Source: an uncultured bacterium
Lineage (GTDB): Bacteria > Desulfobacterota > Binatia > HRBIN30 > CADEER01
Length of the DNA: 64,000 nucleotides
Direction: 5' to 3'
NCBI GenBank assembly: GCA_965651925.1
Contig: CBFGUK010000005.1
Coordinates: forward strand, 357 to 64,356
Under the pieces are notes generated by a model. That model searched no databases. It was not told where the DNA came from and saw only the letters and a list, made by a program, of their open reading frames with translations. Positions 43,450 to 54,532 of the stretch are shown here, piece by piece. A program made the position numbers and the translations under genes. Positions within the stretch are counted from its first letter, which is position 1, and the number at the start of each line of letters is the position of its first letter.

Positions 43450-43474
43450 GAATACCGGCCACGGTGCGCCGTCT
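43450..43474 (+). promoter_or_regulatory. Possible ECF-type autoregulated promoter (GAAT-N16-CGTCT)
   Basis: GAAT at 43450-43453 and CGTCT at 43470-43474, about 20 nt upstream of the GTG at 43494. Motif resemblance only. Confidence 0.25.
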
Positions 43475-43493
43475 ATGGCGCTGGGTTCTCCCA

Positions 43494-44063
43494 GTGGCGC
43501 GTAGCGATCGCGAACTCGTTCGCGACAGCCGGCTGGGTGACAAGGAGGCCTTCCGCGAGCTCGTAGAACGATACCAGCGCAAGATCCTGGCGGTCGCCGT
43601 CGGCATGGTGCACAACCGCGACGATGCCCTCGAGCTGACGCAGGAAACGTTTGTCAAAGCGTACGAAAACCTAGATCGTTTCAAGGGCGAGTCGAGCTTC
43701 TATACATGGCTGTACCGCATCGTCGTGAACCTGGGGATCGATTTCCGTCGTCGCGGTCGGCGGCAGGGCACTGTGGCGCTCGCCGACCGGCCGGGAGGCG
43801 GCGAGGACATCGAGGCGACGCTGCCCGAGCAGCGGCTGGCCGATCCCTACCAGCAGACGCGATCGCGACAGATCGGGGAACGCATGCAGCAGGCCATCAA
43901 CGAGTTGACCCCCGATCACAAAGCGGTCATACTCCTGCGCGAAGTCGAAGGGCTCTCCTACGAAGACATCAGCCGAGTCATGCAGTGCTCAAAAGGCACC
44001 GTCATGAGCCGACTGCATTACGCGCGCAAGAAGCTGCAGGACAAGCTGAAGGACCTGCTGTGA
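43494..44063 (+). CDS. ECF (sigma-70 family group 4) RNA polymerase sigma factor
   Basis: ORF 43464..44063; GTG 43494 is preferred (VARSDRELVRDSRLGDKEAFRELVERY). Region 2 is ALELTQETFVKAYENLDRF...FYTWLYRIVVN. Region 4 is LSYEDISRVMQCSKGTVMSRLHYARKKL. Confidence 0.85.
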   Translation: MARSDRELVRDSRLGDKEAFRELVERYQRKILAVAVGMVHNRDDALELTQETFVKAYENLDRFKGESSFYTWLYRIVVNLGIDFRRRGRRQGTVALADRPGGGEDIEATLPEQRLADPYQQTRSRQIGERMQQAINELTPDHKAVILLREVEGLSYEDISRVMQCSKGTVMSRLHYARKKLQDKLKDLL

Positions 44064-44115
44064 GGCGCGCTGCCAGGGGAGCCGGCAGGATGCCGGATCG
44101 ACTGTGGACACCGGC

Positions 44116-44679
44116 ATGACCTGTCGCGACACGCGACCCCTGCTGCCGTTGTTTTTCGACGGCGAGCTGGAAGCGCGCCAGATGCGCGCCGTCGCCCTGC
44201 ACAGTACGCGATGTGCGGAGTGCGAGCACGAGCTGCGCGCGCTCGAGCACCTGCAGGAGGCGCTGAATACGCACGTCGCGTCGCTGGTCGACTCGATCGA
44301 TCTCGACCGCGTCTGGGCCGGCGTGGCGCCGCGGCTGCCCGGTCGCGCCCCCTCGCTCGCCGAGCGCTGGCGCGCGTGGTGGGAGGAGCATCGCAGCAGC
44401 TGGGGCGTCCGCGGCCCGGCGCTGGCGACGCTCGGGGCCGCCATCGCCCTCGCGCTGGTGCTCGTGCCGCGCGGGCCGGACGCGTCCTCGACGGCCGCCG
44501 GTCCGCTCGCCGATGTCGCCAAGATCGACAACTCGGCGAAGCTCGATTCCATGCACAGCAGCGTCGATTCCGTGGCGGTGGTGACCGACGCGGAAACCAA
44601 CACCACGCTGCTGTGGATCATGGACGACACGGCAGGTGCCTTCGAGCACGTCGCCGACGACCTGGAGGCCTACGAGTGA
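44116..44679 (+). CDS. Anti-sigma factor with N-terminal zf-HC2-like motif and one TM helix
   Basis: Contains MTCRDTRPLLPLFFDGELEARQMRAVALHSTRCAECEHEL (H-x3-C-x2-C) and the TM helix LATLGAAIALALVLV. Immediately downstream of the ECF sigma gene. Confidence 0.7.
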   Translation: MTCRDTRPLLPLFFDGELEARQMRAVALHSTRCAECEHELRALEHLQEALNTHVASLVDSIDLDRVWAGVAPRLPGRAPSLAERWRAWWEEHRSSWGVRGPALATLGAAIALALVLVPRGPDASSTAAGPLADVAKIDNSAKLDSMHSSVDSVAVVTDAETNTTLLWIMDDTAGAFEHVADDLEAYE

Positions 44680-45188
44680 TCGGCCGGCTGGTCGTCGCCG
44701 TTGCTGGTTGTATCGCCTATGCGGCGACGGCACAGGCCGATGCGATGCGCGTTCCCGATGAGGGCGTCGAGGTGCGCATCGATACGGTGCTGGCCAGCAA
44801 TTCCGGCACGGTTTTCGATTCCGCGCTGAAGCCGCTCAAACAGCCATTCCGCGGGCTGTTTCCGTACTCGTCGTACCGCCTCATCCAGGGCGAGCGGCGT
44901 CTGGTCGGCTGGAAGCGCGAGGAGCAGTTCCTGCTGCCGGGGCAGCGCTATCTGATCGTCATGCCGCGCGGCATCCAGGGCGATCGCGTGTCGCTGAGCG
45001 TCATGCTGATCCAGGGCACGCGGCCGCTGGTCAATACCGTGCTGTCGCTCAAGAACGACGGCACGTTCCTCGTCGGCGGTCCGAGCTACGGCGACGGCGT
45101 GCTGATCATTGCGATCGGCGCGCGCACCACGGCGCCGACGACGCCGAGCCTGCCGCTGCGACCGGTCGCCGGGCAGACCGACCGCTGA
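44676..45188 (+). CDS. Hypothetical exported (possibly lipo-)protein, third gene of the ECF module
   Basis: GTG 44676 overlaps the anti-sigma TGA (GTGA). N-terminus is VIGRLVVAVAGCIAYAATAQA. I recognise no family. Confidence 0.5.
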   Translation: MIGRLVVAVAGCIAYAATAQADAMRVPDEGVEVRIDTVLASNSGTVFDSALKPLKQPFRGLFPYSSYRLIQGERRLVGWKREEQFLLPGQRYLIVMPRGIQGDRVSLSVMLIQGTRPLVNTVLSLKNDGTFLVGGPSYGDGVLIIAIGARTTAPTTPSLPLRPVAGQTDR

Positions 45189-45266
45189 TCCGGCGCCGCG
45201 TGCGCGGCGCACACCCGGTATCCAGACCGCTGCTCGATGCGGCGCACCGGGGGGCGGTTGCCTCGT

Positions 45267-45749
45267 TCAGGCCGACTCGCCGTCGGGCGACTCCTCCAGC
45301 ACCGTCACGGCGACGTCGGGGATCGACGGCAGGCGCACTCCGGCCGAGCGCGACAGGAGGCGAGAGAGCCAGGAGCGCTTCTCGACCACCAGGATCGCAC
45401 TCGCAATGTCGTGCGCCCGTACGACCCGGGCGCAGACGACATCGGGATCGCCTTCTTCGATCAGCGGCGTGAACGGCACGCCGCGCGCCGCCGCCTGTGT
45501 GCCGACCGCCGCGAGGATCGCCTCCGCCTGGCTGCGCTGTTCGCGCGTCAATACCTCGACGACGCGGTCGCTCACGTGCTCGCCCATGAACGCGCTGTCG
45601 AGGGACGCCGCGACGCGCGCCGTCTCCGCCGGATCGAGCAGCACCAGGCCGACGAGCGTGGCGCCGGTGCGCGCGGCGCGCTCCAGCGCCTCATCGCGCG
45701 CCAGACGCGGCTCGATGCCGGGCGGAATGATCAGCAGCACGTTCCCCAT
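45267..45749 (-). CDS. Universal stress protein (UspA)-like protein
   Basis: 160-aa ORF with an alpha/beta pattern: NVLLIIPPG..., LVGLVLLD..., GDPDVVCARVVRAHDIASAILVV. Assignment made by eye. Confidence 0.55.
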   Translation of the reverse strand: MGNVLLIIPPGIEPRLARDEALERAARTGATLVGLVLLDPAETARVAASLDSAFMGEHVSDRVVEVLTREQRSQAEAILAAVGTQAAARGVPFTPLIEEGDPDVVCARVVRAHDIASAILVVEKRSWLSRLLSRSAGVRLPSIPDVAVTVLEESPDGESA

Positions 45750-45762
45750 CGGACCGCCCTCC

Positions 45763-47202
45763 CTAGAGGCGCACGCCGATTACCGGCCAGAACCAGAACG
45801 CCATCAGGTTGAACACCACGAACGCGATCAGGTTCAGCAGCAGCCCGGGCCATGCCATGTCGCTCAGGCGCAGATAGCCGGAGGAGAACGCGATCGCGTT
45901 TGCCGGCGTGCCGATCGGCAGCATGAACGCCATGCCCGCCGGCACGGCGACGAGCGGCGCCGCGGCCCGGACGTCGAGACCGAACTGCTGCAACACCGCG
46001 ATGGCCATCGGCATGGTGATCGCGACTGCCGCGGAGTTGCTCATCACCTCGGTGAGCACCACGGTCGCGAACGCGATCATGATCACGACCGTCACCGGGC
46101 CGCCCGCCCACTGCGAGATGCTGTTGTCCGCCACCCAGGCGGCCGCCCCGGTGCTGTTCAGCGCCGAGCCGAGACAGATCGCGCCACCGTACATCAGGAT
46201 CAGCCCCCAGTTGACGTAGCGCTCGACATCCCGCCACTGCACGACGCCGAAGGCGAACAGCGCGACGACCGCGGCGAGCGCGATGTTCGCCAGCCCGAAC
46301 TCCTCGCCGAGCACGATCCACGCGAGCACGGTCACCACCATCGCGGTCGCGATCTGCAGCTCCTGCAGCGTCATCCGGCCGGTGCGCTGCAGCCGCTCCT
46401 CGACCGCGCGCGCCGCGGCCGCCGTGTCGTGCAGATCGATCGGGAAGAAGGTCCGCAGCACGGTCCAGCCGACCGCGAACAGCACGAGCGCGAGGGGCAC
46501 GTTCATCGCCGCCCATTCGGCGAACGAGTAGGACTCGCCGGTGACCTCCTTGAGAATGCCGATGGCCAGCGGCGCGCGCGCGCCGCCGAGCATCGTCGCG
46601 ACACCGCCGATCGTCGTGCCCCACGCCATCGCGAGGAAGAGCCCCTTGGCGTAGGTGCTGCGCCCGGGCGGCAGCCGCAGGGCGGCGACGATCTCGACGA
46701 TGATCGGGAAGGTCATCGCCGCGACCGCATGCTCGGACATGAAGAAGGACATCACCCCGTTGAGCAGGAAGACGCCGCCGAGCAGGGTCGATGGCCGGTG
46801 CCCGAAGCGCCGCAGGATGGTCAGCGCGAGCCGTGCCGACAGGCCGGATTTCATCATCGCCGCCGCGAGGATGAACGCGCCGAGGATGAAGAACACCGCC
46901 TCGTTGCCGAAGTTCGCGTACGCCTGCTTCGCGGTCATCGCGCCGGTGAGCGGCAGCAGGATGATCGCGAGCAGGCCGGTGATCATGATCGGCAGGAGCT
47001 CGAAGACCCAGTAGAAGATGCACAGCCCGAACACGGCGAGCGCGTTCTGCGCCGCGGTATCGAGCCCGTCCGGCTGCGGCAGCGAGCGGATCAGGGAGAA
47101 CACGCCGAGGCCGGCGAGCAGCATGACCAGCCGCCGGCTGCGCGCGAGGACGATGATCCACAGGGGCCGGGTGTCGATCTCGACGCGCGGGGCCGCGGGC
47201 AT
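45763..47202 (-). CDS. DASS / SLC13 family anion:sodium symporter
   Basis: 479-aa polytopic ORF. Contains FYWVFELLPIMITGLLAIILLPLTG and two SNSA/TPAN-type hairpin motifs (EVMSNSAAVAI, LPIGTPANAIAF). Confidence 0.85.
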   Translation of the reverse strand: MPAAPRVEIDTRPLWIIVLARSRRLVMLLAGLGVFSLIRSLPQPDGLDTAAQNALAVFGLCIFYWVFELLPIMITGLLAIILLPLTGAMTAKQAYANFGNEAVFFILGAFILAAAMMKSGLSARLALTILRRFGHRPSTLLGGVFLLNGVMSFFMSEHAVAAMTFPIIVEIVAALRLPPGRSTYAKGLFLAMAWGTTIGGVATMLGGARAPLAIGILKEVTGESYSFAEWAAMNVPLALVLFAVGWTVLRTFFPIDLHDTAAAARAVEERLQRTGRMTLQELQIATAMVVTVLAWIVLGEEFGLANIALAAVVALFAFGVVQWRDVERYVNWGLILMYGGAICLGSALNSTGAAAWVADNSISQWAGGPVTVVIMIAFATVVLTEVMSNSAAVAITMPMAIAVLQQFGLDVRAAAPLVAVPAGMAFMLPIGTPANAIAFSSGYLRLSDMAWPGLLLNLIAFVVFNLMAFWFWPVIGVRL

Positions 47203-47327: not shown

Positions 47328-48551
47328 TCACAGGTGCGACGAATCGAACGAGTCACTGACCTGGCGCACGCGCAGCCGGCGGCGCAATCGCGACAGATTG
47401 CGCGCCGCGAGCGCGCCGAGCCGCGAGCGATAGAACTGGCCCATGCCGATCGACGCCCGCGCGTCGTCGCCGGCGAAGAAGCGCGCCTCGATCGGCGTCA
47501 CGGCGAAGCTCAGGTCGCGCACCCAGTGCATGTTGATGCGGGCATCGCGCACGGCACGGAACAGATGCGCGAAGATCGGCGCGACGGCCGCGGCATCCGG
47601 CAGCGGATGGTCGCGCAGGCGGGTGTCGACGAGCGGGCGGAACAGCGACAGCACCGGCAGCACGCCGAGACCGACGAGCGTGTCGATGCCGGCGATCGTC
47701 GATTCCGGCGCCTCGAGGCCGACGATCAGATCGCTCCACACCGTGCCGCTCGGGAACACCGTCGCGGCATGCGCGAGCGCCTCGTAGTACCGGTCGCGGC
47801 CGACCTCCCGTACCCGACCCGGGCACAGCTCGGCGAGCCGCTGCGGATCGTGGATCTCGACCGCGTAGCTGAGCGCGTCGACGCCCATGGCGTACGTGCG
47901 GTCGATCCAGAAGTCGTCGCGCGGCGGCTGCAGCTGCACGGCGACGAGCGTGTCGAAGTGGCGCTTGATGGCGCGGACGTACGGCTCGAGGAACTCGACG
48001 CCGGCATCGTCGCCGGCATGCTGGCCGATGTGGAGATAGACGAATTCGACCGCGCCCTCGGCGAACGCCGCGCGCACGGTGTCGACCACGTCGGCCACCG
48101 CCAGCGGCTCGACCCGATCGGGGGCGCGCGACGGCAGGTCGCAGAAGTCGCACGCGAGCCCGCGCGGTACGAACGCACAGCCGGCCGCCGGATTGATCGC
48201 CAGATAGCCGCCGTACGCGGAGCCGACGCGCCACATCGGCAGACCCGAGCGGGTCGTCTGGCGGTAGAAGCGCGGCGGCGGCACGATGCGCACCTCGCAG
48301 CGCTGCGCCTCGCTGGCGAGCACGAAGGTCGCGCCCTCGGCGCGCAGCTCGTACGGCGAGGCGTCGGTGAAGGCCTGGCCCGCCGGCACGCTGACCCAGA
48401 CGTCCTCGGGCAGCACGATCTCGAGATTGTGTGCCGTGTAGTCCTGGTCGACGGTCAGGGCAGCGATGTCCGGATGATCGCAGACCCCGGCGCCGAGGCG
48501 CGCGCCGCGGATCGCGAGGTCGAACTTGAGGAATCCCGGATTGGGGGTCAT
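47328..48551 (-). CDS. Uncharacterised protein, possibly a radical-SAM-like Fe-S enzyme with non-canonical CX8CX2C motif
   Basis: ATG 48551 overlaps the upstream TGA (ATGA), inside ORF 47328..49067. 407 aa with a beta-rich N-terminal segment of about 95 aa, then YLAINPAAGCAFVPRGLACDFCDLP. The rest looks like an alpha/beta barrel by eye. It is clearly coding; its function is unknown. Confidence 0.5.
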   Translation of the reverse strand: MTPNPGFLKFDLAIRGARLGAGVCDHPDIAALTVDQDYTAHNLEIVLPEDVWVSVPAGQAFTDASPYELRAEGATFVLASEAQRCEVRIVPPPRFYRQTTRSGLPMWRVGSAYGGYLAINPAAGCAFVPRGLACDFCDLPSRAPDRVEPLAVADVVDTVRAAFAEGAVEFVYLHIGQHAGDDAGVEFLEPYVRAIKRHFDTLVAVQLQPPRDDFWIDRTYAMGVDALSYAVEIHDPQRLAELCPGRVREVGRDRYYEALAHAATVFPSGTVWSDLIVGLEAPESTIAGIDTLVGLGVLPVLSLFRPLVDTRLRDHPLPDAAAVAPIFAHLFRAVRDARINMHWVRDLSFAVTPIEARFFAGDDARASIGMGQFYRSRLGALAARNLSRLRRRLRVRQVSDSFDSSHL

Positions 48552-49219
48552 GCGGCGGGCGGTCCCGGATTGCAGAGCGGGCACGCCGGCCGCGACGGCG
48601 CCATGACCGGCGTCAGCGCCGCGGTCGCGGCATCGAAGCCGAACGTCATCGGGCGTCGCGCGCCGGGCCGATCGAGCGCGATGCCGACCGCCGCGAACGC
48701 CAGCAACGAGCCGAGCACGGTCGCGCTGAGGACCGCAAACGCCTCGTCGCCGCGATCCGGAGTCGCGGGACGGGACACCGACGCACAGAGCGCGCAGGGA
48801 CCGGTGCCGTCGTCGACGTGCAGCCAGCCGCCCGTCGCCGTGACGGCAGCGGCGACCAGCGGCACGCGGGCGGCTCGCATGCTGGCGGCGAGCGTCTCGA
48901 GTGCGGCCGGGTCGAGCCCGGCGGCGAGTGCCGCGGCGATCGAGGCCGCCGCAGCGCCCGCCGGTACCGCATCCACCGGTTGCAGGTCGATCGTCGAGTT
49001 CAGGGCGCGCAGCGAGGCAACGAGCGCGCCGGCATCGGTTGCCAGCCGGAGGTGGCCGATGCCGCATCCGGCGAGCGCGCGGCCGGTCACCTGCGCCAGC
49101 GTGCCGGCGCCGGCGAGCACGACCGTCGCCTCCGCGAGTCGCTCCTGACCGGTGCCGCCGATCTCGGGCAGGATGATCTGGCGGCTGTACCGCTCGATCT
49201 GCGCGTCGGTGAGCGCCAT
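48548..49219 (-). CDS. Degenerate ThiF/MoeB (E1-like) family protein retaining the N-terminal RYSRQ motif
   Basis: ATG 49219 inside ORF 48548..50017; 223 aa. Contains MALTDAQIERYSRQIILPEIGGTGQERLAEATVVLAGAGTLAQ and two CxxC pairs (CALC, CPLC). The SNLxRQ and D-x-T-D-N adenylation motifs are not recognisable. Confidence 0.65.
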   Translation of the reverse strand: MALTDAQIERYSRQIILPEIGGTGQERLAEATVVLAGAGTLAQVTGRALAGCGIGHLRLATDAGALVASLRALNSTIDLQPVDAVPAGAAAASIAAALAAGLDPAALETLAASMRAARVPLVAAAVTATGGWLHVDDGTGPCALCASVSRPATPDRGDEAFAVLSATVLGSLLAFAAVGIALDRPGARRPMTFGFDAATAALTPVMAPSRPACPLCNPGPPAA

Positions 49220-49227
49220 GCGCGTCG

Positions 49228-50214
49228 TCAGCCGCGTGGATGCCGCTGCTGCCACTCGCGCCACCCGGCCCAGAGATTCGTGCTCAGGTAGCGGTCGCCG
49301 AAATCGGGGAAGATCATCACCACCACGCCCGTCGCGAGGTCGCGCGCCACCCGACGCGCCGCGTACAGCGCCGCTCCCGAGGACTGGCCGACGATCAGGC
49401 CGAAGCGCGCCCCGAGCTCGTAGACGAGATCGTACGCGACGTCGGTAGGGACCGGGATTTTCGCGTCGAGCTCTTCCTCCTTGTAGATGCCGGGCACGAT
49501 CGAGCTCGCCATGTGCTTGAGCCCCTCGAGCCCGTGCAGCGCATCGTCCGGTTCGGCGGCGATCACCTGCACGCGCGGATTGCGCTGCTTGAGATAGCGG
49601 CCGGTGCCCATGATCGTGCCGCCGGTGCCGATGCCGGCGACGAAGTGCGTGACGCGGCCGCCGGTCGCCTCCCAGATTTCGGGTCCGGTACTCTCGAAGT
49701 GCGCCTGCGGATTCAGCGGGTTGAAGTACTGATCGGGCTTGAAGTAGCGCTCCGGCTGCTCGGCGAGCAGCGTGCGGCACAGGAGAATCGCGCCGTCGGA
49801 GCCTTCGAGGCCGCTGCTGTAGACGATCTCGGCGCCGAACGCGCTGATGATCCGCTTGCGCTCCTCGCTGACGTTCGCCGGCATCACCAGCGTCACCGGA
49901 TAGCCGAGCGCCGCGCCGATCATCGCCAGCGCAATGCCGGTGTTGCCCGAGGTCGAATCGATGATCGTCTTCCCGGGCCGCAGTGCGCCGGTGGCGAGGC
50001 CGTGGCGCACCATCCACAGCGCCGCGCGATCCTTCACCGAGCCGCCGGGATTGAATCCTTCGAGCTTCGCGTACAGCCGCACGCTCGACGCGAGATCGGG
50101 CGCGATCGCCGAGATGTCGAGCAGCGGCGTGCGGCCGACCAGGTCGAGAATCGACCGGGCGCGGCCGCCGGGGTCGGCGGGCGACACCGTCGCGGTGGCG
50201 CCGGGAACGGGCAT
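49228..50214 (-). CDS. Cysteine synthase B (CysM)-like PLP-dependent sulfhydrylase
   Basis: ORF 49228..50235 (TTG); ATG 50214 is preferred. Contains GRTPLLDI, KLEGFNPGGSVKDRAA (PLP lysine), DSTSGNTGIALA and GIGTGGTIMG. Confidence 0.85.
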   Translation of the reverse strand: MPVPGATATVSPADPGGRARSILDLVGRTPLLDISAIAPDLASSVRLYAKLEGFNPGGSVKDRAALWMVRHGLATGALRPGKTIIDSTSGNTGIALAMIGAALGYPVTLVMPANVSEERKRIISAFGAEIVYSSGLEGSDGAILLCRTLLAEQPERYFKPDQYFNPLNPQAHFESTGPEIWEATGGRVTHFVAGIGTGGTIMGTGRYLKQRNPRVQVIAAEPDDALHGLEGLKHMASSIVPGIYKEEELDAKIPVPTDVAYDLVYELGARFGLIVGQSSGAALYAARRVARDLATGVVVMIFPDFGDRYLSTNLWAGWREWQQRHPRG

Positions 50215-50221
50215 GGACCGC

Positions 50222-50497
50222 TCAGCCGCCCGCAATCGCCGGGACGATCGACAGCTCGTCGCCGTCCTTGACCGCGGTCTCGAGGTTGCTGAGAAAGCGG
50301 ATGTCGTCGCCGTTCAGGTAGATGTTGACGAAGCGGCGCACGCGGCCCTCGTCGTCGCAGAGCCGTTCCTTGATGCCGGCAAACTGGCGCTCGAGGTCGT
50401 CGACGACGGCGGCCACGGTGGAGCCGGCGGCGCCGACCTCCTCGGCACCGCCGGTGAAGCGACGCAGCGGCGTCGGGATGCGAACTTTTGCGGGCAT
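50222..50497 (-). CDS. MoaD/ThiS/CysO-like sulfur-carrier protein ending in Gly-Gly
   Basis: ATG 50497 with GGGGAGGA 8 nt upstream, inside ORF 50222..50530. 91 aa: MPAKVRIPTPLRRFTGGAEEVGAAG...NGDDIRFLSNLETAVKDGDELSIVPAIAGG followed directly by the stop. Confidence 0.8.
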   Translation of the reverse strand: MPAKVRIPTPLRRFTGGAEEVGAAGSTVAAVVDDLERQFAGIKERLCDDEGRVRRFVNIYLNGDDIRFLSNLETAVKDGDELSIVPAIAGG

Positions 50498-50526
50498 GCT
50501 GACTGTCCTCCCCTCGGTGGAACTGC

Positions 50527-51789
50527 TCACTCGGCCGCGGCGGCGCGGCGCGCCGCCGGAACGAGCGAGTCGTAAAGCCTGTCGAAATCCTGCAGCCGCG
50601 CGTCGATGACCGTCGGCTGCGCGACGCTCGCGCGCACCGCCTCGAGTGTCTTGTAGCCGTTGCCGGTGATGCAGATGACGATCGATTCGTCGCGCGGAAT
50701 GCGGCCCTGATCAATCAGTTTTTTCGTCACGGCGACGGTGGTGCCGCCGGCCGGCTCGGTGAAAATGCCCTCGGTGCGCGCCAGCAGGTGGAGCGCCTCG
50801 ACGATCTCGGCGTCGCTGGCCGCCTCGCCCCAGCCGCCGCTGCCCCGCACGGTACGCAGCACGTCGTAGCCGTCGGCGGGGTTGCCAATCGCGATCGAGC
50901 TCGCGATCGTGTCGGGCTTCACCGGCTCGATGACGTCGGTGCCGCGATGCAGCGCCTGTACGACCGGCGCGCAGCCCGCTGCCTGCGCCGTGTGGATCGC
51001 CGGCGACGGCGCGTCGAGCAGGCCGACGAGGCGCAGCTCGTCGAATGCCCGGGCGATCTTCGGCAGGAGCGTGCCGCCGGCGGTGGGCACGACGATGTGC
51101 CGCGGCGGCGTCCAGCCGAGCTGCTCGGCGATCTCGAAGCCGCAGGTCTTCGCACCTTCGGTGTAGTACGGGCGCAGATTGATGTTGACGAACGCCCAGC
51201 GGTACTTGTCCGCGATCTCGCTGCACAGGCGGTTGACGTCGTCGTAGTTGCCGCGCACCGCCACGGTGTGCGGCCCGTAGATGGCCGAGCCGAGGATCTT
51301 TCCCTGCTCGAGGTCGTCGGGGATGAAGATGACGCAGGGGAGCCCGGCTCGCGCCGCGTGCGCCGAGACGCTGTTGGCGAGGTTGCCGGTGGAGGCGCAC
51401 GACACGGTGGTGAAGTCGAGCTCCATCGCGGCGGAGATGGCGACCGAGACGACGCGGTCCTTGTACGAGAACGTCGGGTGGTTGACCGAGTCGTCCTTGA
51501 CCCAGACCTCGCGCGCTCCCAGCGCCGCGGCGAGCCGCTCGGCTCTCACCAGCGGCGTGCAGCCCGAGTGCGGACCGACGCGCGGTTCGCGCGTCACGGG
51601 CAGCAGCTCGCGATAGCGCCAGAGATTGCGCGGCCGGGCGGCGATCGCCGCGCGCGTCAGCGCGCGCGCGATCGCCGGGTAATCATAGACCACCTCCAGC
51701 GGTCCGAAGCACTGTTCGCAGACGTGCAGCGGCTCGCGCGCGTATTCGGCACCGCACTCGCGGCAGCGCAGCCCCTCGACGTGGCCCAT
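50527..51789 (-). CDS. Threonine-synthase-like PLP enzyme with N-terminal zinc ribbon
   Basis: ATG 51789 with AGGGGA upstream. Contains LRCRECGAEYAREPLHVCEQCFG, HPTFSYKDRVVSV (PLP lysine), SCASTGNLANS and NINLRPYYTEG. Confidence 0.85.
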   Translation of the reverse strand: MGHVEGLRCRECGAEYAREPLHVCEQCFGPLEVVYDYPAIARALTRAAIAARPRNLWRYRELLPVTREPRVGPHSGCTPLVRAERLAAALGAREVWVKDDSVNHPTFSYKDRVVSVAISAAMELDFTTVSCASTGNLANSVSAHAARAGLPCVIFIPDDLEQGKILGSAIYGPHTVAVRGNYDDVNRLCSEIADKYRWAFVNINLRPYYTEGAKTCGFEIAEQLGWTPPRHIVVPTAGGTLLPKIARAFDELRLVGLLDAPSPAIHTAQAAGCAPVVQALHRGTDVIEPVKPDTIASSIAIGNPADGYDVLRTVRGSGGWGEAASDAEIVEALHLLARTEGIFTEPAGGTTVAVTKKLIDQGRIPRDESIVICITGNGYKTLEAVRASVAQPTVIDARLQDFDRLYDSLVPAARRAAAAE

Positions 51790-51801
51790 CAACTGTCCCC
51801 T

Positions 51802-52548
51802 CTATCGCGCTGGTCCCGCGGCATCCAGCCGCCCGGCGGCCGGGCGGCCGGCGCACGCCGGGCAGCGCGGATTGCGCGCCAGGCGCACCTGGCGCCAGCG
51901 GCCGGAGAGCAGATCGACGGTCAGCAGGCGATCGGTCAGCGGGCGGCCGCGACCGGTGAGCTGCTTGATGGCTTCGCCGGCCTGCACCGCACCGATGACG
52001 CCGGCAATGGCACCGATGACCCCGGCGGTCTGGCACGTCGGGAGGCCATCGGCGGGCGGCGCCTCGGGAAACAGGCAGCGATAGCAGGCGCTGGTGCCCG
52101 GGACGACGGTCAGCGTCTGGCCGAGGAAACCGAGGATGCCGGCATGCGAGTACGGCCGCCCGAACGCCACCGCGCCGTCGTTGATCAGGAACTTGGTCGC
52201 CACGTCGTCGGTGGCGTCGATGACGAAGTCGCTGGTGAACACGTCCGCCAGGTTGGCAGCGGTGAGGCGTTCCACCCGCGCGATGAGCTCCAGACCGGGG
52301 TGCGCGTCACGCAGCGCGGAGGCCGCGGCGAGCACCTTCGGCAGGCCGAGGTCGTCCTCGCGGTAGAGCGGCTGCCGTGGCAGGTTCGAGAGCTCGACGA
52401 CATCGGAGTCGAGCAGGATCAGCGTGCCGACGCCGGCGGCGGCGAGCACCGGCGCGGCGGCACAGCCCAGCGCACCCATGCCGATCACCGCGATGCGCGC
52501 GTCCGCCAGGTCGCGCCCGGCGGCGTTCCGTTTCCCATCGGCAGCCAT
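51802..52548 (-). CDS. ThiF/MoeB-type E1-like adenylyltransferase lacking the N-terminal RYxRQ segment and lacking a rhodanese domain
   Basis: ATG 52548; the longer ORF to 52605 would run through the riboswitch terminator. Contains ARIAVIGMGALGCAAAPVLAAAGVG, LLDSDVVELSNLPRQ, FVIDATDDVATKFLIND and the CYRC...CPAC zinc motifs. Confidence 0.85.
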   Translation of the reverse strand: MAADGKRNAAGRDLADARIAVIGMGALGCAAAPVLAAAGVGTLILLDSDVVELSNLPRQPLYREDDLGLPKVLAAASALRDAHPGLELIARVERLTAANLADVFTSDFVIDATDDVATKFLINDGAVAFGRPYSHAGILGFLGQTLTVVPGTSACYRCLFPEAPPADGLPTCQTAGVIGAIAGVIGAVQAGEAIKQLTGRGRPLTDRLLTVDLLSGRWRQVRLARNPRCPACAGRPAAGRLDAAGPAR

Positions 52549-52564: not shown

Positions 52565-52594
52565 CAAAAAAGCCCCGCCCGGGAGGGCGGGGCC
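52565..52594 (-). terminator. Intrinsic terminator forming the expression platform of the SAM-I riboswitch
   Basis: The minus strand reads GGCCCCGCCC-TCCC-GGGCGGGGC-TTTTTTG, 17 nt upstream of the thiF-like ATG. Confidence 0.8.
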
Positions 52595-52613
52595 AAGAAC
52601 GGCACGTTCTCGC

Positions 52614-52723
52614 CTTATCTCCCCGGGCCTGTTCCCGGCTGGATTTAGCACCGGCGCCCCGGCGGACCCGGAAACCGGTTGCTGTGGCGTCACAGGGCCA
52701 GTCCCTCAGCCACTCTGGATAAG
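52614..52723 (-). promoter_or_regulatory. SAM-I (S-box) riboswitch aptamer
   Basis: The minus strand reads CTTATCCAGAGTGGCTGAGGGACTGGCCCTGTGACGCCACAGCAACCGG...GCCGGTGCTAAATCCAGCCGGGAACAGGCCCGGGGAGATAAG. This matches the conserved S-box core (CUUAUCnAGAG-GG-GAGGGAcUGGCCC-GA-CC-GCAACC ... GGUGCUAAnUCC ... AGAUaAG), with P1 formed by CTTATC/GATAAG. Confidence 0.9.
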
Positions 52724-52754
52724 GATGTTGGTCGTCAGTCTGCGGACGGGTGGA

Positions 52755-52804: not shown

Positions 52805-53767
52805 TCAATAGCGCGCGCCACCGGCCCCGTACGGGCCGGTGCGGCCGAACGGACCCGCGCCGCCGGGCAGTCCGAGCCCGCCGCCGGCCGGCGTCGTGCC
52901 GCGTCGCTGAGTCTGCGGCAGCTGGCGCGGCGGGATCTGGGCCACGGCGATGTCACGCGTCCGACCGGTGGTGCTGCGCAGCAGGACGAGCGGATCCCCC
53001 GACGGCGCTGGGTGCTCCTTCGTCAGGCGATCGAGTGCCTCCTCGGCCTCGCGTGCCGCTTCATGCGTCGGGTGATGGTAGGTCACGGCCGTGTAGGCGA
53101 GCACGGCCGTATCGTAGTTCTCCTGACGCTCGTAGATGCCGGCGAGGCGGAGCAGCGCCTCGCCGGAGACGTCGGTTTCCGGGAAGCGGTTGACGAGGTC
53201 GAGATAGCGGATCGCGGCGGCTTCGAGCTTGCCGTGCCGCTCGTAGTAGCGACCGACGTCGAGCTCGTGCGTCGCCAGGGTCTCACGAGTGCGCGCCAGG
53301 CGATCGCGTGCCAGCACCGCATACGGGCTGGTCGGGAACTGCTGAATCACCGCCTGGTAGTAGGCGTGCGCATTCTGCGACGCGCTCTGGTCGCGGTCCG
53401 ACGGCCGCATCTGCTGCTCGGCGCACTGGCCGAGCAGATAGCCAACCATCGGCAGGGACGGGCTGGTCGGATGCCGGCGCTGGAAGTCTGTGAACGACGC
53501 CGTCGCTTCCGGGCAGAGATTGTTCATGTACTGGGCGACGCCGATGTGCAGTTCCGCCTGCTCGCTCTGCTCGCTGAACGGATACTCGTCGAGCAAGGCG
53601 CGGTACGTCTCCACCGCCTGCGTGTAGGCGCCGAGGCGCATGTGCTCGGTGGCGAGCGCATGGTACTCGCCGGCGGCCACCGGCTGCTTCGGTCCGCAGC
53701 CGCTGGTGACGAGACCGAGGACGAGCGGCGCGCCGAGCAGCAGCGCGCGAAGTGCAGCAGGATGCAT
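52805..53767 (-). CDS. bamD: Outer membrane protein assembly factor BamD (TPR lipoprotein)
   Basis: ATG 53767 inside ORF 52805..53977. Lipoprotein signal MHPAALRALLLGAPLVLGLVTSGC. TPR-like repeats are present (YPFSEQSEQAELHIGVAQY, FPTSPYAVLARDRLA, HELDVGRYYERHGKLEAA), followed by a Gly/Pro-rich tail. Confidence 0.8.
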   Translation of the reverse strand: MHPAALRALLLGAPLVLGLVTSGCGPKQPVAAGEYHALATEHMRLGAYTQAVETYRALLDEYPFSEQSEQAELHIGVAQYMNNLCPEATASFTDFQRRHPTSPSLPMVGYLLGQCAEQQMRPSDRDQSASQNAHAYYQAVIQQFPTSPYAVLARDRLARTRETLATHELDVGRYYERHGKLEAAAIRYLDLVNRFPETDVSGEALLRLAGIYERQENYDTAVLAYTAVTYHHPTHEAAREAEEALDRLTKEHPAPSGDPLVLLRSTTGRTRDIAVAQIPPRQLPQTQRRGTTPAGGGLGLPGGAGPFGRTGPYGAGGARY

Positions 53768-53905
53768 GCGCCGACTATGCAGGACGCGGCCCGCGGTCGC
53801 AAAGCCCACCGGCGCGCACCGCGGCCGACGCTCGCCTGCGGGCGGCGCGCGGCGACGCCATTGCGCCGGCGCACCGCCTTTTGGTAGCCGGGCGCGGAAC
53901 CCCGC

Positions 53906-54532
53906 ATGGCCGGCCTCTCGCTTCCCGTCTCGCGCGCGGCGCTGCTGCTCGTCGAGCTGCAGAACGACATCGTGCACGCATCAAACATCGGCGGGCCGGG
54001 ATTCCGTGGCGTGCTCGCCGAACAGGTCCGCACCCGCGGCGTGCTCGAGCGGGCGGCCGCCCTGGCGGCGGCGGCGCGCGCCGCGCGGGTGCCGGTGGGC
54101 TACATCAACTACGCGCGCAAGCCGGACTTCCCGCGGCCGCGCACGCTCCTGCACCGGCGTACCGGCACGACGCCGACGCTGATCGAGGGCACCTGGGGGG
54201 CGGAGACGCACGAGGCGGTGGCGCCGACGGCGGCCGATTTCGTCTTCACGCGCTGCATCGGCATCGACGGCTCGTACGGCACACAGCTCTACCCGGTGCT
54301 GCGCATGCTCGGACGCGATGTGCTGCTCGTCGGCGGCGTGTCGACGACCCTCGCCGTCGAGGGACTGGTGCGTGCGTCGGTCAACCGCGGGTTCGAGCTG
54401 TTCGTCATCGAGGACTGCTGCGCCGGCGCGCCACCTGCGTGGCACGAGTTCTCGATCACCAACGTCCTGCCGCTGCTGGCGACGGTCACCTCGACCGAGG
54501 CCGTGCTCGCGGCGCTGCGGGAGGCCGCGTGA
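53906..54532 (+). CDS. Isochorismatase / cysteine hydrolase family protein
   Basis: 208-aa ORF. Contains ALLLVELQNDIV and LLVGGVSTTLAVEGLVRASVNRGFELFVIEDCCA. Confidence 0.8.
   Translation: MAGLSLPVSRAALLLVELQNDIVHASNIGGPGFRGVLAEQVRTRGVLERAAALAAAARAARVPVGYINYARKPDFPRPRTLLHRRTGTTPTLIEGTWGAETHEAVAPTAADFVFTRCIGIDGSYGTQLYPVLRMLGRDVLLVGGVSTTLAVEGLVRASVNRGFELFVIEDCCAGAPPAWHEFSITNVLPLLATVTSTEAVLAALREAA

Follow-up and report, generated by a model that had tools for sequence, protein, structure and literature searches.

The operon and its two E1-like genes

The DNA analysed here is a window of 64,000 nucleotides (nt) from contig CBFGUK010000005.1 of an uncultured bacterium of the Binatia. The window has a G+C content of about 71%, and its closest relatives are metagenome-assembled genomes (MAGs) labelled Candidatus Binatia or 'Deltaproteobacteria bacterium'. 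Its minus strand carries a riboswitch-controlled operon that encodes two E1-like proteins of the MoeB/ThiF type, here named E1a and E1b. E1a (51802..52548, 248 aa) is an active-type adenylation subunit without the N-terminal RYxRQ helix. E1b (48548..49219, 223 aa) is a degenerate subunit of the MoeB/ThiF fold that contains this helix and both CxxC pairs, and is without the catalytic motifs. This complementary pattern suggests that the two proteins most likely act together as one heterodimeric enzyme.

The operon begins with an S-adenosylmethionine (SAM) riboswitch aptamer of the S-box leader type (52612..52725, minus strand, as are all the operon features; Rfam RF00162 at 82.5 bits, gathering score 44.4, E 1.2e-18), whose expression platform is an intrinsic terminator (52565..52594; stem 52594..52571, then a T-run). 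The terminator stem contains 10 pairs, nine of them G-C, and a loop of 4, and is followed by TTTTTT. The operon genes are closely packed and start 16 nt past the end of the terminator, at the ATG of E1a (52548); both E1-like genes are co-transcribed under one riboswitch. E1a is followed by a threonine-synthase-like pyridoxal 5'-phosphate (PLP) enzyme (50527..51792; Pfam PALP 1.2e-71; TIGR00260 thrC 269.9 bits), a ThiS/MoaD-like sulfur-carrier protein (50222..50530; Pfam ThiS 1.4e-16; NF041918 SAMP1 62.3 bits) whose translation ends in ...VPAIAGG, i.e., in Gly-Gly, and a CysM-like cysteine synthase, also a PLP enzyme (49228..50235; Pfam PALP; TIGR01138 cysM 7.3e-110, with 367 bits slightly below the cut-off of 394). 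E1b comes next, and its stop codon is overlapped (ATGA) by the start codon of a variant radical-SAM gene (47328..48551; NF045502 variant_rSAM, 166 bits, cut-off 125). The threonine-synthase-like enzyme adjoins the ThiS-like carrier and stands under the SAM riboswitch, which is the MetM/MetO-type setting as judged by gene order and Pfam/NCBIfam matches. On this basis the enzyme is a candidate MetM-like homocysteine synthase and presumably active as such. MetM is itself ThrC-like and often misannotated (preprint 10.1101/2024.10.14.618325).

E1a retains the active site without the helix

An earlier sequence-only reading of this DNA had held that E1a possesses an intact adenylation core, that it lacks the N-terminal RYxRQ helix, and that there is no room for a longer N-terminus. 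All three claims were borne out. E1a matches the Pfam ThiF profile PF00899 with an E-value of 3.9e-67 and 226.3 bits (cut-off 28.1) over residues 12-231, covering profile positions 16-238 of 238; the first 15 positions, which correspond to the RYxRQ helix, are unmatched. Its alignment with Escherichia coli ThiF (residues 24-247, E 2.9e-46) and MoeB (residues 28-248) is collinear and contains no insertions. The GMGALG, SNLPRQ, GLPK, IDATDD, CYRC and CPAC motifs were all found and align with ThiF/MoeB, and the alignment provides equivalents of MoeB Gly41, Arg73, Lys86 and Asp130 (residue list from PMC12355090). The structural zinc site is likewise present, as CYRC and CPAC coincide in the alignment with the ThiF and MoeB cysteine pairs.

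Only about 17 residues precede strand 1 of E1a. In the AlphaFold2 model (predicted local distance difference test, pLDDT, 88.5), residues 1-9 are disordered and no helix precedes strand 1. Residue 13 of E1a aligns with residue 14 of human SAE2/UBA2, so that both proteins have the same start relative to strand 1. E1a cannot extend further at its N-terminus, since the riboswitch and terminator reach to within 16 nt of the ATG. A longer form starting from GTG 52605 was considered and rejected: its frame crosses the terminator stem and contains no RYxRQ, and no orthologue has RYxRQ either. In the 30 orthologues with an intact 5' end, no RYxRQ was detected upstream of the E1a glycine loop when the frame was read back to the preceding stop.

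E1b retains the helix and the fold without catalysis

The N-terminus of E1b reads MALTDAQIERYSRQIILPEIGG and matches PF00899 positions 1-50, in agreement with the sequence-only reading, which had placed the helix on this protein. The match (47.9 bits, cut-off 28.1) is confined to these positions. The proposed trans-acting helix comprises residues 3-25 (LTDAQIERYSRQIILPEIGGTGQ; 49145..49213, minus strand), with the Arg13 codon at 49181..49183. Arg13 aligns with MoeB Arg14 and ThiF Arg11, the arginine-finger residues of those enzymes (PMC13139853). No second ThiF-family gene able to donate such a helix was found within the 64-kb window.

The alignment of E1b with MoeB spans the whole length in two blocks, residues 3-61 to MoeB 4-62 and residues 70-217 to MoeB 94-248. 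Between strand 2 and the next helix, about 23 residues are deleted (alignment A1), and the deleted block is the one holding the ribose-binding Asp together with the Arg of SNLxRQ and the Lys; the Asp of TDN is not aligned. The claim that E1b has lost SNLxRQ and TDN therefore stands. The proposal that ASLRALNS is a remnant of SNLxRQ does not: the segment was deleted rather than decayed, and ASLRALNS aligns with the helix after Lys86 (MoeB DALTRINP).

The AlphaFold2 model of E1b shows a complete E1 fold (pLDDT 92.6; predicted template modelling score, pTM, 0.88). Its best Protein Data Bank match by Foldseek is MoeB 1jw9_B (TMq 0.80, E 3.9e-15), and the SAE1 chains 6cwz_C and 1y8q_C are also matched (TMq ~0.71). 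The alignment to MoeB/ThiF that had been proposed as a check on the earlier reading thus yields a complete fold without a complete active site. Judged by its motifs, E1b is unable to adenylate and should not be filed as an adenylyltransferase. Source annotations name the E1b-type proteins P0004, P0007, P0014 and P0027 'adenylyltransferase/sulfurtransferase' or 'molybdopterin/thiamine biosynthesis adenylyltransferase'. With every catalytic motif gone, such naming of E1b-type proteins is a systematic misannotation.

The two forms occur together

Genomic context was examined in 169 fetched loci. The operon, in the order E1a, ThrC-like, ThiS, CysM-like, optional NIL-domain gene and E1b, recurs in 44 of them, mostly from Candidatus Binatia. 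Helix-less E1a and E1b are found together in these 44 loci, with no exception where the contig covers the region; no locus with a covered downstream region has helix-less E1a without E1b. The number comprises 42 loci obtained by automated motif classification and two (L082 and L105) added by inspection and hidden Markov model (HMM) search, their divergent E1b genes having been recovered with an HMM built from the E1b alignment. Conversely, 24 sister operons from other phyla encode a single full-length E1 whose helix and core share one open reading frame, and an HMM search detected E1b in none of these 24. In one of them (L106), gene order and SAM riboswitch are those of the present operon, combined with a full-length E1 and no E1b. 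A scan anchored on ThrC, unbiased regarding E1b, yields the same co-occurrence, and the test of co-occurrence suggested by the earlier reading therefore came out in its favour. The SAM riboswitch was found upstream of E1a in six of the eight related loci tested.

In the tree of E1a and full-length E1s, all helix-less E1a sequences group in a single clade, next to which stand the full-length operon E1s. The pair therefore has a single origin and was retained as the E1a sequences drifted apart to about 50% identity. In five loci (L105, L107, L109, L113 and L114), E1b is reduced to ~150-170 aa, and little beyond the helix and first strands is left.

The E1b family extends well beyond these operons. 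The first protein search returned about 20 E1b relatives with the same deletion, and an exhaustive profile search returned 446 E1b-family representatives at E <= 1e-30. Among the newly listed top matches, 140 of 141 have the helix only, without SNLxRQ, and GxGxxG is kept in only 24 of the 140. The family includes at least 140 clusters at 50% identity. Considering the 44 loci together with this family of at least 140 clusters, the complementary pattern is far beyond chance.

The composition of the operon varies. Seven loci (L016, L020, L021, L025, L026, L055 and L064) have the order E1a, ThiS, CysM-like, E1b and no ThrC-like gene, sometimes with a radical-SAM gene afterwards; the E1a/E1b pair thus goes with the carrier and the CysM-like gene rather than with the MetM-like enzyme. 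Sister operons in Nitrospirales/Nitrospira MAGs (L056, L066, L078, L086 and L089) have the order CysM, E1, ThrC-like, ThiS, E1, and both of their E1 genes are full-length, with helix and core. These operons are a duplicated, not yet degenerate state in nature.

Selective constraint on E1b is focused on the helix

Among 55 non-redundant E1b orthologues, mean pairwise identity is 0.69 for residues 1-33, 0.39 for residues 34-60 and 0.22 from residue 61 to the end. The equivalent three regions of full-length E1s give 0.65, 0.67 and 0.50, the N-terminal value being inflated by the retrieval of many of these sequences via the helix pattern. For E1a, the corresponding values are 0.16 before strand 1 and 0.49-0.60 in the core. 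Residues L3, Q7, I8, R10, Y11, S12, R13, Q14, I15, G21 and Q25 are invariant in E1b alignment A2. Close E1b pairs have a ratio of nonsynonymous to synonymous substitution rates (dN/dS) of 0.19-0.58; the N-terminal part mostly has the lower values, and those of the C-terminal part are also below 1. E1b is thus a maintained protein under purifying selection. Judged by conservation, what matters most in it is the very stretch with which a MoeB/ThiF subunit acts on its partner in the homodimer. The candidate interpretation of E1b as a pseudogene was ruled out by dN/dS and conservation. In a mirror-tree analysis, all the operon genes were observed to co-vary (r 0.72-0.87), with no signal particular to E1a and E1b.

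Fusions of both domain types

A single-chain arrangement of the two domain types was found outside the operon. Protein P0072 (448 aa; L174, 84-1430), one of the profile matches, contains an E1b-like domain and a helix-less active ThiF domain in one polypeptide. The N-terminal half has the ERYSRQ helix and the same deletion as E1b, without SNLxRQ, and the C-terminal half is 40% identical to E1a, the alignment beginning at E1a residue 13. A second fusion cluster, P0172 (449 aa; L175, 3038-4387), has five member sequences and is 89% identical to P0072, bringing the two together to six member sequences; a fusion fragment, P0173, is also known. Both P0172 and P0173 come from metagenomes other than that of P0072, and since the fusion is present in several metagenomes, an assembly artefact is less likely. 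Downstream, the fusion is adjoined by a ThiI/PP-loop family gene, another sulfur-transfer setting. In L175, a histidine kinase gene and a DUF362/ferredoxin gene lie upstream of it. This Rosetta-stone fusion is the strongest evidence obtained that both domain types form one unit.

A different fusion involves the degenerate domain only. An E1b-like domain with the helix and without SNLxRQ is fused to a C-terminal TusA sulfurtransferase domain (PF01206, E 9.7e-11) in the Magnetococcales MAG JADGCM010000021 (L014, 7995-8966, plus strand), and the same fusion occurs in L015 and in protein P0145. These cases suggest that dead E1 domains can carry sulfur-relay modules. The gene context of the TusA fusion is unrelated, with ispD-like, aminotransferase and trpF-like neighbours. 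Other degenerate ThiF-like proteins with the helix only were noted at L173, 1128-1793 (P0014) and at L172, 152-835 (P0018 group), beside an Era-type GTPase gene or on short contigs.

A putative heterodimeric E1 with one active site

Together, E1a and E1b probably constitute a pseudo-symmetric heterodimeric MoeB/ThiF-type E1 with one active site. E1a would hold the only adenylation site, having lost the helix that the subunits of MoeB/ThiF homodimers lay over the ATP site of the partner. E1b would have lost nucleotide binding and catalysis and retained the E1 fold as a dimerisation scaffold. The E1b helix would cover the nucleotide pocket of E1a in trans, with Arg13 near the gamma-phosphate, and the E1a:E1b complex would have a single active site, with one carrier protein bound. 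The complex would adenylate the Gly-Gly carrier of the operon, the thiocarboxylate of which would feed the CysM-like and the ThrC-like (MetM-like) enzymes for the production of cysteine and homocysteine. This scheme is modelled on the CysO/CysM and MetO/MetM pathways (10.1101/2024.10.14.618325). The assignment of the active site to one protein and of the helix with its arginine to the other, as claimed in the sequence-only reading, agrees at the sequence level with both the complementary motif loss and the pattern of constraint.

Several observations weigh against a heterodimer, or against the part assigned to the arginine. The arginine fingers MoeB Arg14 and ThiF Arg11 were reported to be non-essential, and homodimeric TcdA has no arginine finger at all (PMC13139853); E1a might therefore adenylate alone, or retain some activity alone. 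In the yeast Tcd1-Tcd2 pair, the R59A mutation in the finger-bearing Tcd1 had little effect, which is a warning about the weight to be given to this arginine (PMC13139853). In the mirror-tree analysis, E1a and E1b have a partial correlation of only 0.17 once the other operon genes are controlled for, compared with a partial distance correlation of 0.33 between E1b and ThiS. The single clade of E1a means that the co-occurrence reflects one origin and long maintenance rather than many independent events, and L047 has E1b without E1a immediately upstream. The P0072/P0172 fusions come from another lineage and another gene context, with the ThiI-like neighbour, and lie on short contigs. The TusA fusions suggest sulfur delivery as a possible role of the dead subunit, either in addition or as an alternative. 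In view of the finger data, E1b may contribute the helix as a whole, or scaffold and stability for the dimer, rather than one catalytic arginine.

Alternative explanations

E1a might instead be a homodimeric adenylyltransferase on its own, working without an arginine finger as TcdA does, with E1b as a separate non-catalytic adaptor that holds the carrier or recruits the sulfur donor in place of the rhodanese domain of MoeZ/Uba4. This is considered unlikely, even though it accommodates several of the points just given: the finger that is dispensable in MoeB/ThiF and absent from TcdA (PMC13139853), the fusion of E1b-like domains to TusA in Magnetococcales MAGs and P0145, and the closer partial correlation of E1b with ThiS than with E1a. 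The translational coupling of E1b to the variant radical-SAM gene in the window also fits an adaptor. However, conservation in E1b peaks in the very helix that in homodimers acts on the other subunit and falls to only 22% identity in the rest of the protein, the part equivalent to the carrier-binding region of MoeB included, and an adaptor role leaves this unexplained. Nor does it account for the restriction of E1b to loci whose active E1 has lost its helix, or for the joining of both domain types in P0072/P0172, and the radical-SAM, NIL and TusA partners of E1b-type proteins are not constant. The adaptor and the heterodimer are not exclusive, as a heterodimer partner could also recruit sulfur.

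An idea of this combined kind can be put forward tentatively, although its probability is low. The heterodimer could be an independent bacterial re-invention, in primary sulfur metabolism, of the asymmetric inactive/active E1, with the freed inactive subunit turned into a docking arm for sulfur delivery. The two-gene stage would then be represented by the Binatia operon and the fused stage by P0072/P0172, and the inactive subunit would replace the rhodanese domain of MoeZ/Uba4. The idea is put forward because of the TusA fusion in Magnetococcales, the NIL gene that precedes E1b in most loci and the radical-SAM coupling in the window.

It is improbable that E1b is a regulatory pseudoenzyme that pairs with E1a or a further MoeB/ThiF paralogue of the cell in mixed dimers and thereby lowers or gates activity instead of completing the active site. 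Dead paralogues that titrate active ones are common, and E1b has the full E1 fold without catalytic residues. In many related loci a NIL-domain gene lies directly upstream of E1b, and NIL is linked to methionine sensing in MetN. However, E1b is co-transcribed with its would-be targets under the same SAM riboswitch, so that a purely negative role would be wasteful. The universal loss of the helix in the E1a clade indicates that E1a is itself an incomplete partner, and the 64-kb window contains no other ThiF-family gene.

That E1b is a functionless decaying duplicate and the short N-terminus of E1a a harmless truncation would fit the loss of all catalytic motifs, the fast divergence past E1b residue 60 and the shrinkage of some orthologues to ~150 aa, but it is effectively refuted by dN/dS values of 0.19-0.58 over the whole of E1b, C-terminal part included, by the near invariance of residues 1-33 in ~55 orthologues, by the retention of E1b at every locus of a clade in which E1a is only ~50% identical, and by the size of the E1b family (at least 140 clusters at 50% identity).

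How does the pair compare with known E1 systems?

The putative heterodimer of E1a and E1b resembles E. coli MoeB/ThiF in fold, chemistry, the zinc site of two CxxC pairs and the Gly-Gly substrate of ThiS/MoaD type. Unlike the pair, MoeB and ThiF are symmetric homodimers in which each subunit has an active site and a helix with Arg14 or Arg11 (PMC12355090, PMC13139853); here, active site and helix are split between two gene products.

Like SAE1(Aos1)-UBA2 and NAE1(APPBP1)-UBA3, the operon combines an inactive, helix-bearing paralogue with an active paralogue that starts just before strand 1, and sequences and predicted folds show this two-paralogue arrangement of heterodimeric E1s here. The comparison with Aos1-Uba2 made in the earlier reading is supported by the start of E1a, which corresponds to that of SAE2, and by the match of the E1b model to SAE1, the heterodimer itself being probable. 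In contrast to the eukaryotic enzymes, there is no insertion of a catalytic-cysteine (SCCH/CYS) domain, no ubiquitin-fold domain (UFD) and no E2; no E2-like gene was found in the operon. A sulfur carrier serving amino-acid synthesis, and not a protein modifier, would be the substrate. By these features E1a/E1b appears akin to the adenylation core of SAE1-UBA2 and NAE1-UBA3, but outside the canonical E1 family. Both proteins are matched best by MoeB and ThiF, in sequence as well as in structure, and not by eukaryotic E1s. Because of these matches, and because the E1a clade lies beside the full-length E1s of the sister operons, we infer that the pair is of independent origin, by duplication within bacteria from a MoeB/ThiF-type E1.

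A further likeness is seen in yeast Tcd1-Tcd2, a ThiF/TcdA-like heterodimer for the cyclic N6-threonylcarbamoyladenosine (ct6A) modification of tRNA, in which two ThiF-like paralogues also show complementary degeneration. Tcd1 has the arginine finger Arg59 and no ATP-coordinating arginine, and completes the active site of Tcd2 (PMC13139853). Unlike E1a/E1b, this pair is eukaryotic, belongs to the TcdA branch and acts on tRNA. BilD, from the ubiquitination-like Bil antiviral operons, is a bacterial E1 with an inactive and then an active adenylation domain that form a pseudo-dimer (PMC10557695), and the order of domains in P0072/P0172, inactive and then active, is that of Uba1 and BilD. However, BilD is a single polypeptide with a CYS domain that works with an E2 in phage defence, whereas E1a/E1b would be a two-gene metabolic E1. 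Apart from BilD, the known bacterial E1-like proteins are all stated to be homodimeric, with MoeB, ThiF and Cap2 among them (PMC10557695).

With respect to gene content, the closest parallels are CysO-CysM-MoeZ of Mycobacterium and MetO-MetM-MoeZ of Streptomyces, which share the ThiS-like carrier, the CysM-like enzyme, the threonine-synthase-like enzyme, an E1 and regulation by SAM. These systems differ in that they rely on a single rhodanese-fused E1 (MoeZ) for carrier activation and require a JAB peptidase (Mec). In the present operon there is no rhodanese, the carrier already ends in Gly-Gly and the E1 is split; a simple motif scan of the window gave no JAB motif in a plausible gene. A Mec-like gene could be located elsewhere in the genome.

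Bacterial MoeB/ThiF-type E1s are usually regarded as symmetric homodimers (PMC10557695, PMC12355090), and asymmetric E1s have so far been seen as a eukaryotic feature or as one of BilD in phage defence. No description of a bacterial heteromeric or split MoeB/ThiF was found in the literature searched, the coverage of which is incomplete, and a heterodimeric sulfur-carrier E1 of bacteria has most likely not been described before. If the heterodimer is real, duplication followed by complementary loss would happen readily in the E1 fold, with a two-gene operon E1 here and a fused version elsewhere. The pair would also offer a small bacterial system (~25 + 27 kDa) in which the contribution of the trans-acting helix and its arginine could be probed. 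Should the inactive subunit in addition be a docking arm, the system would be a living model of how eukaryotic E1 asymmetry arose, followed by domain gain on the dead half. For reconstruction of methionine and cysteine pathways in Binatia, both the E1a and the E1b genes need to be considered.

Neighbouring genes

The string of genes in the window ends with a transporter of the Na+/sulfate-symporter family (45763..47202, minus strand; Pfam PF00939 2.4e-65). The order E1b, radical-SAM, transporter is also found in L005 and L008. The radical-SAM protein of the window has, in addition, a weaker match to the MSMEG_0568 family. A radical-SAM gene directly follows E1b in 16 related loci and is missing from many others, which have NIL, haloacid dehalogenase (HAD), adenosine 5'-phosphosulfate (APS) kinase or ATP-sulfurylase genes at this position. 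The notion of E1b as a dedicated partner of the radical-SAM protein is therefore not general, since many E1b loci are without the latter.

A stand-alone NIL-domain gene (PF09383) separates the CysM-like gene from E1b in most type A loci (L001, 7726-8004; also, for example, L004, L007 and L170). NIL domains are found in MetN and in methanogen proteins of homocysteine synthesis. In the window, the gap between the CysM-like gene and E1b is only 8 nt, and no NIL gene is present there. HAD-hydrolase, APS-kinase and ATP-sulfurylase genes were observed after E1b at L001, 8776-10029; L004, 8591-11085; and L170, 1262-3817. These neighbours link the operon to sulfate assimilation.

Beyond the transporter lies a weak Usp-like gene (45267..45749), and further on (43464..45212) an extracytoplasmic function (ECF) sigma factor, a zf-HC2 anti-sigma protein and two small genes, encoded on the strand opposite to the operon. 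On the other side, the operon is bordered by a gene for a BamD/YfiO-like tetratricopeptide repeat (TPR) protein (52805..53977). The sigma/anti-sigma block beside the operon is conserved in the syntenic regions of L001, L002, L007 and L008.

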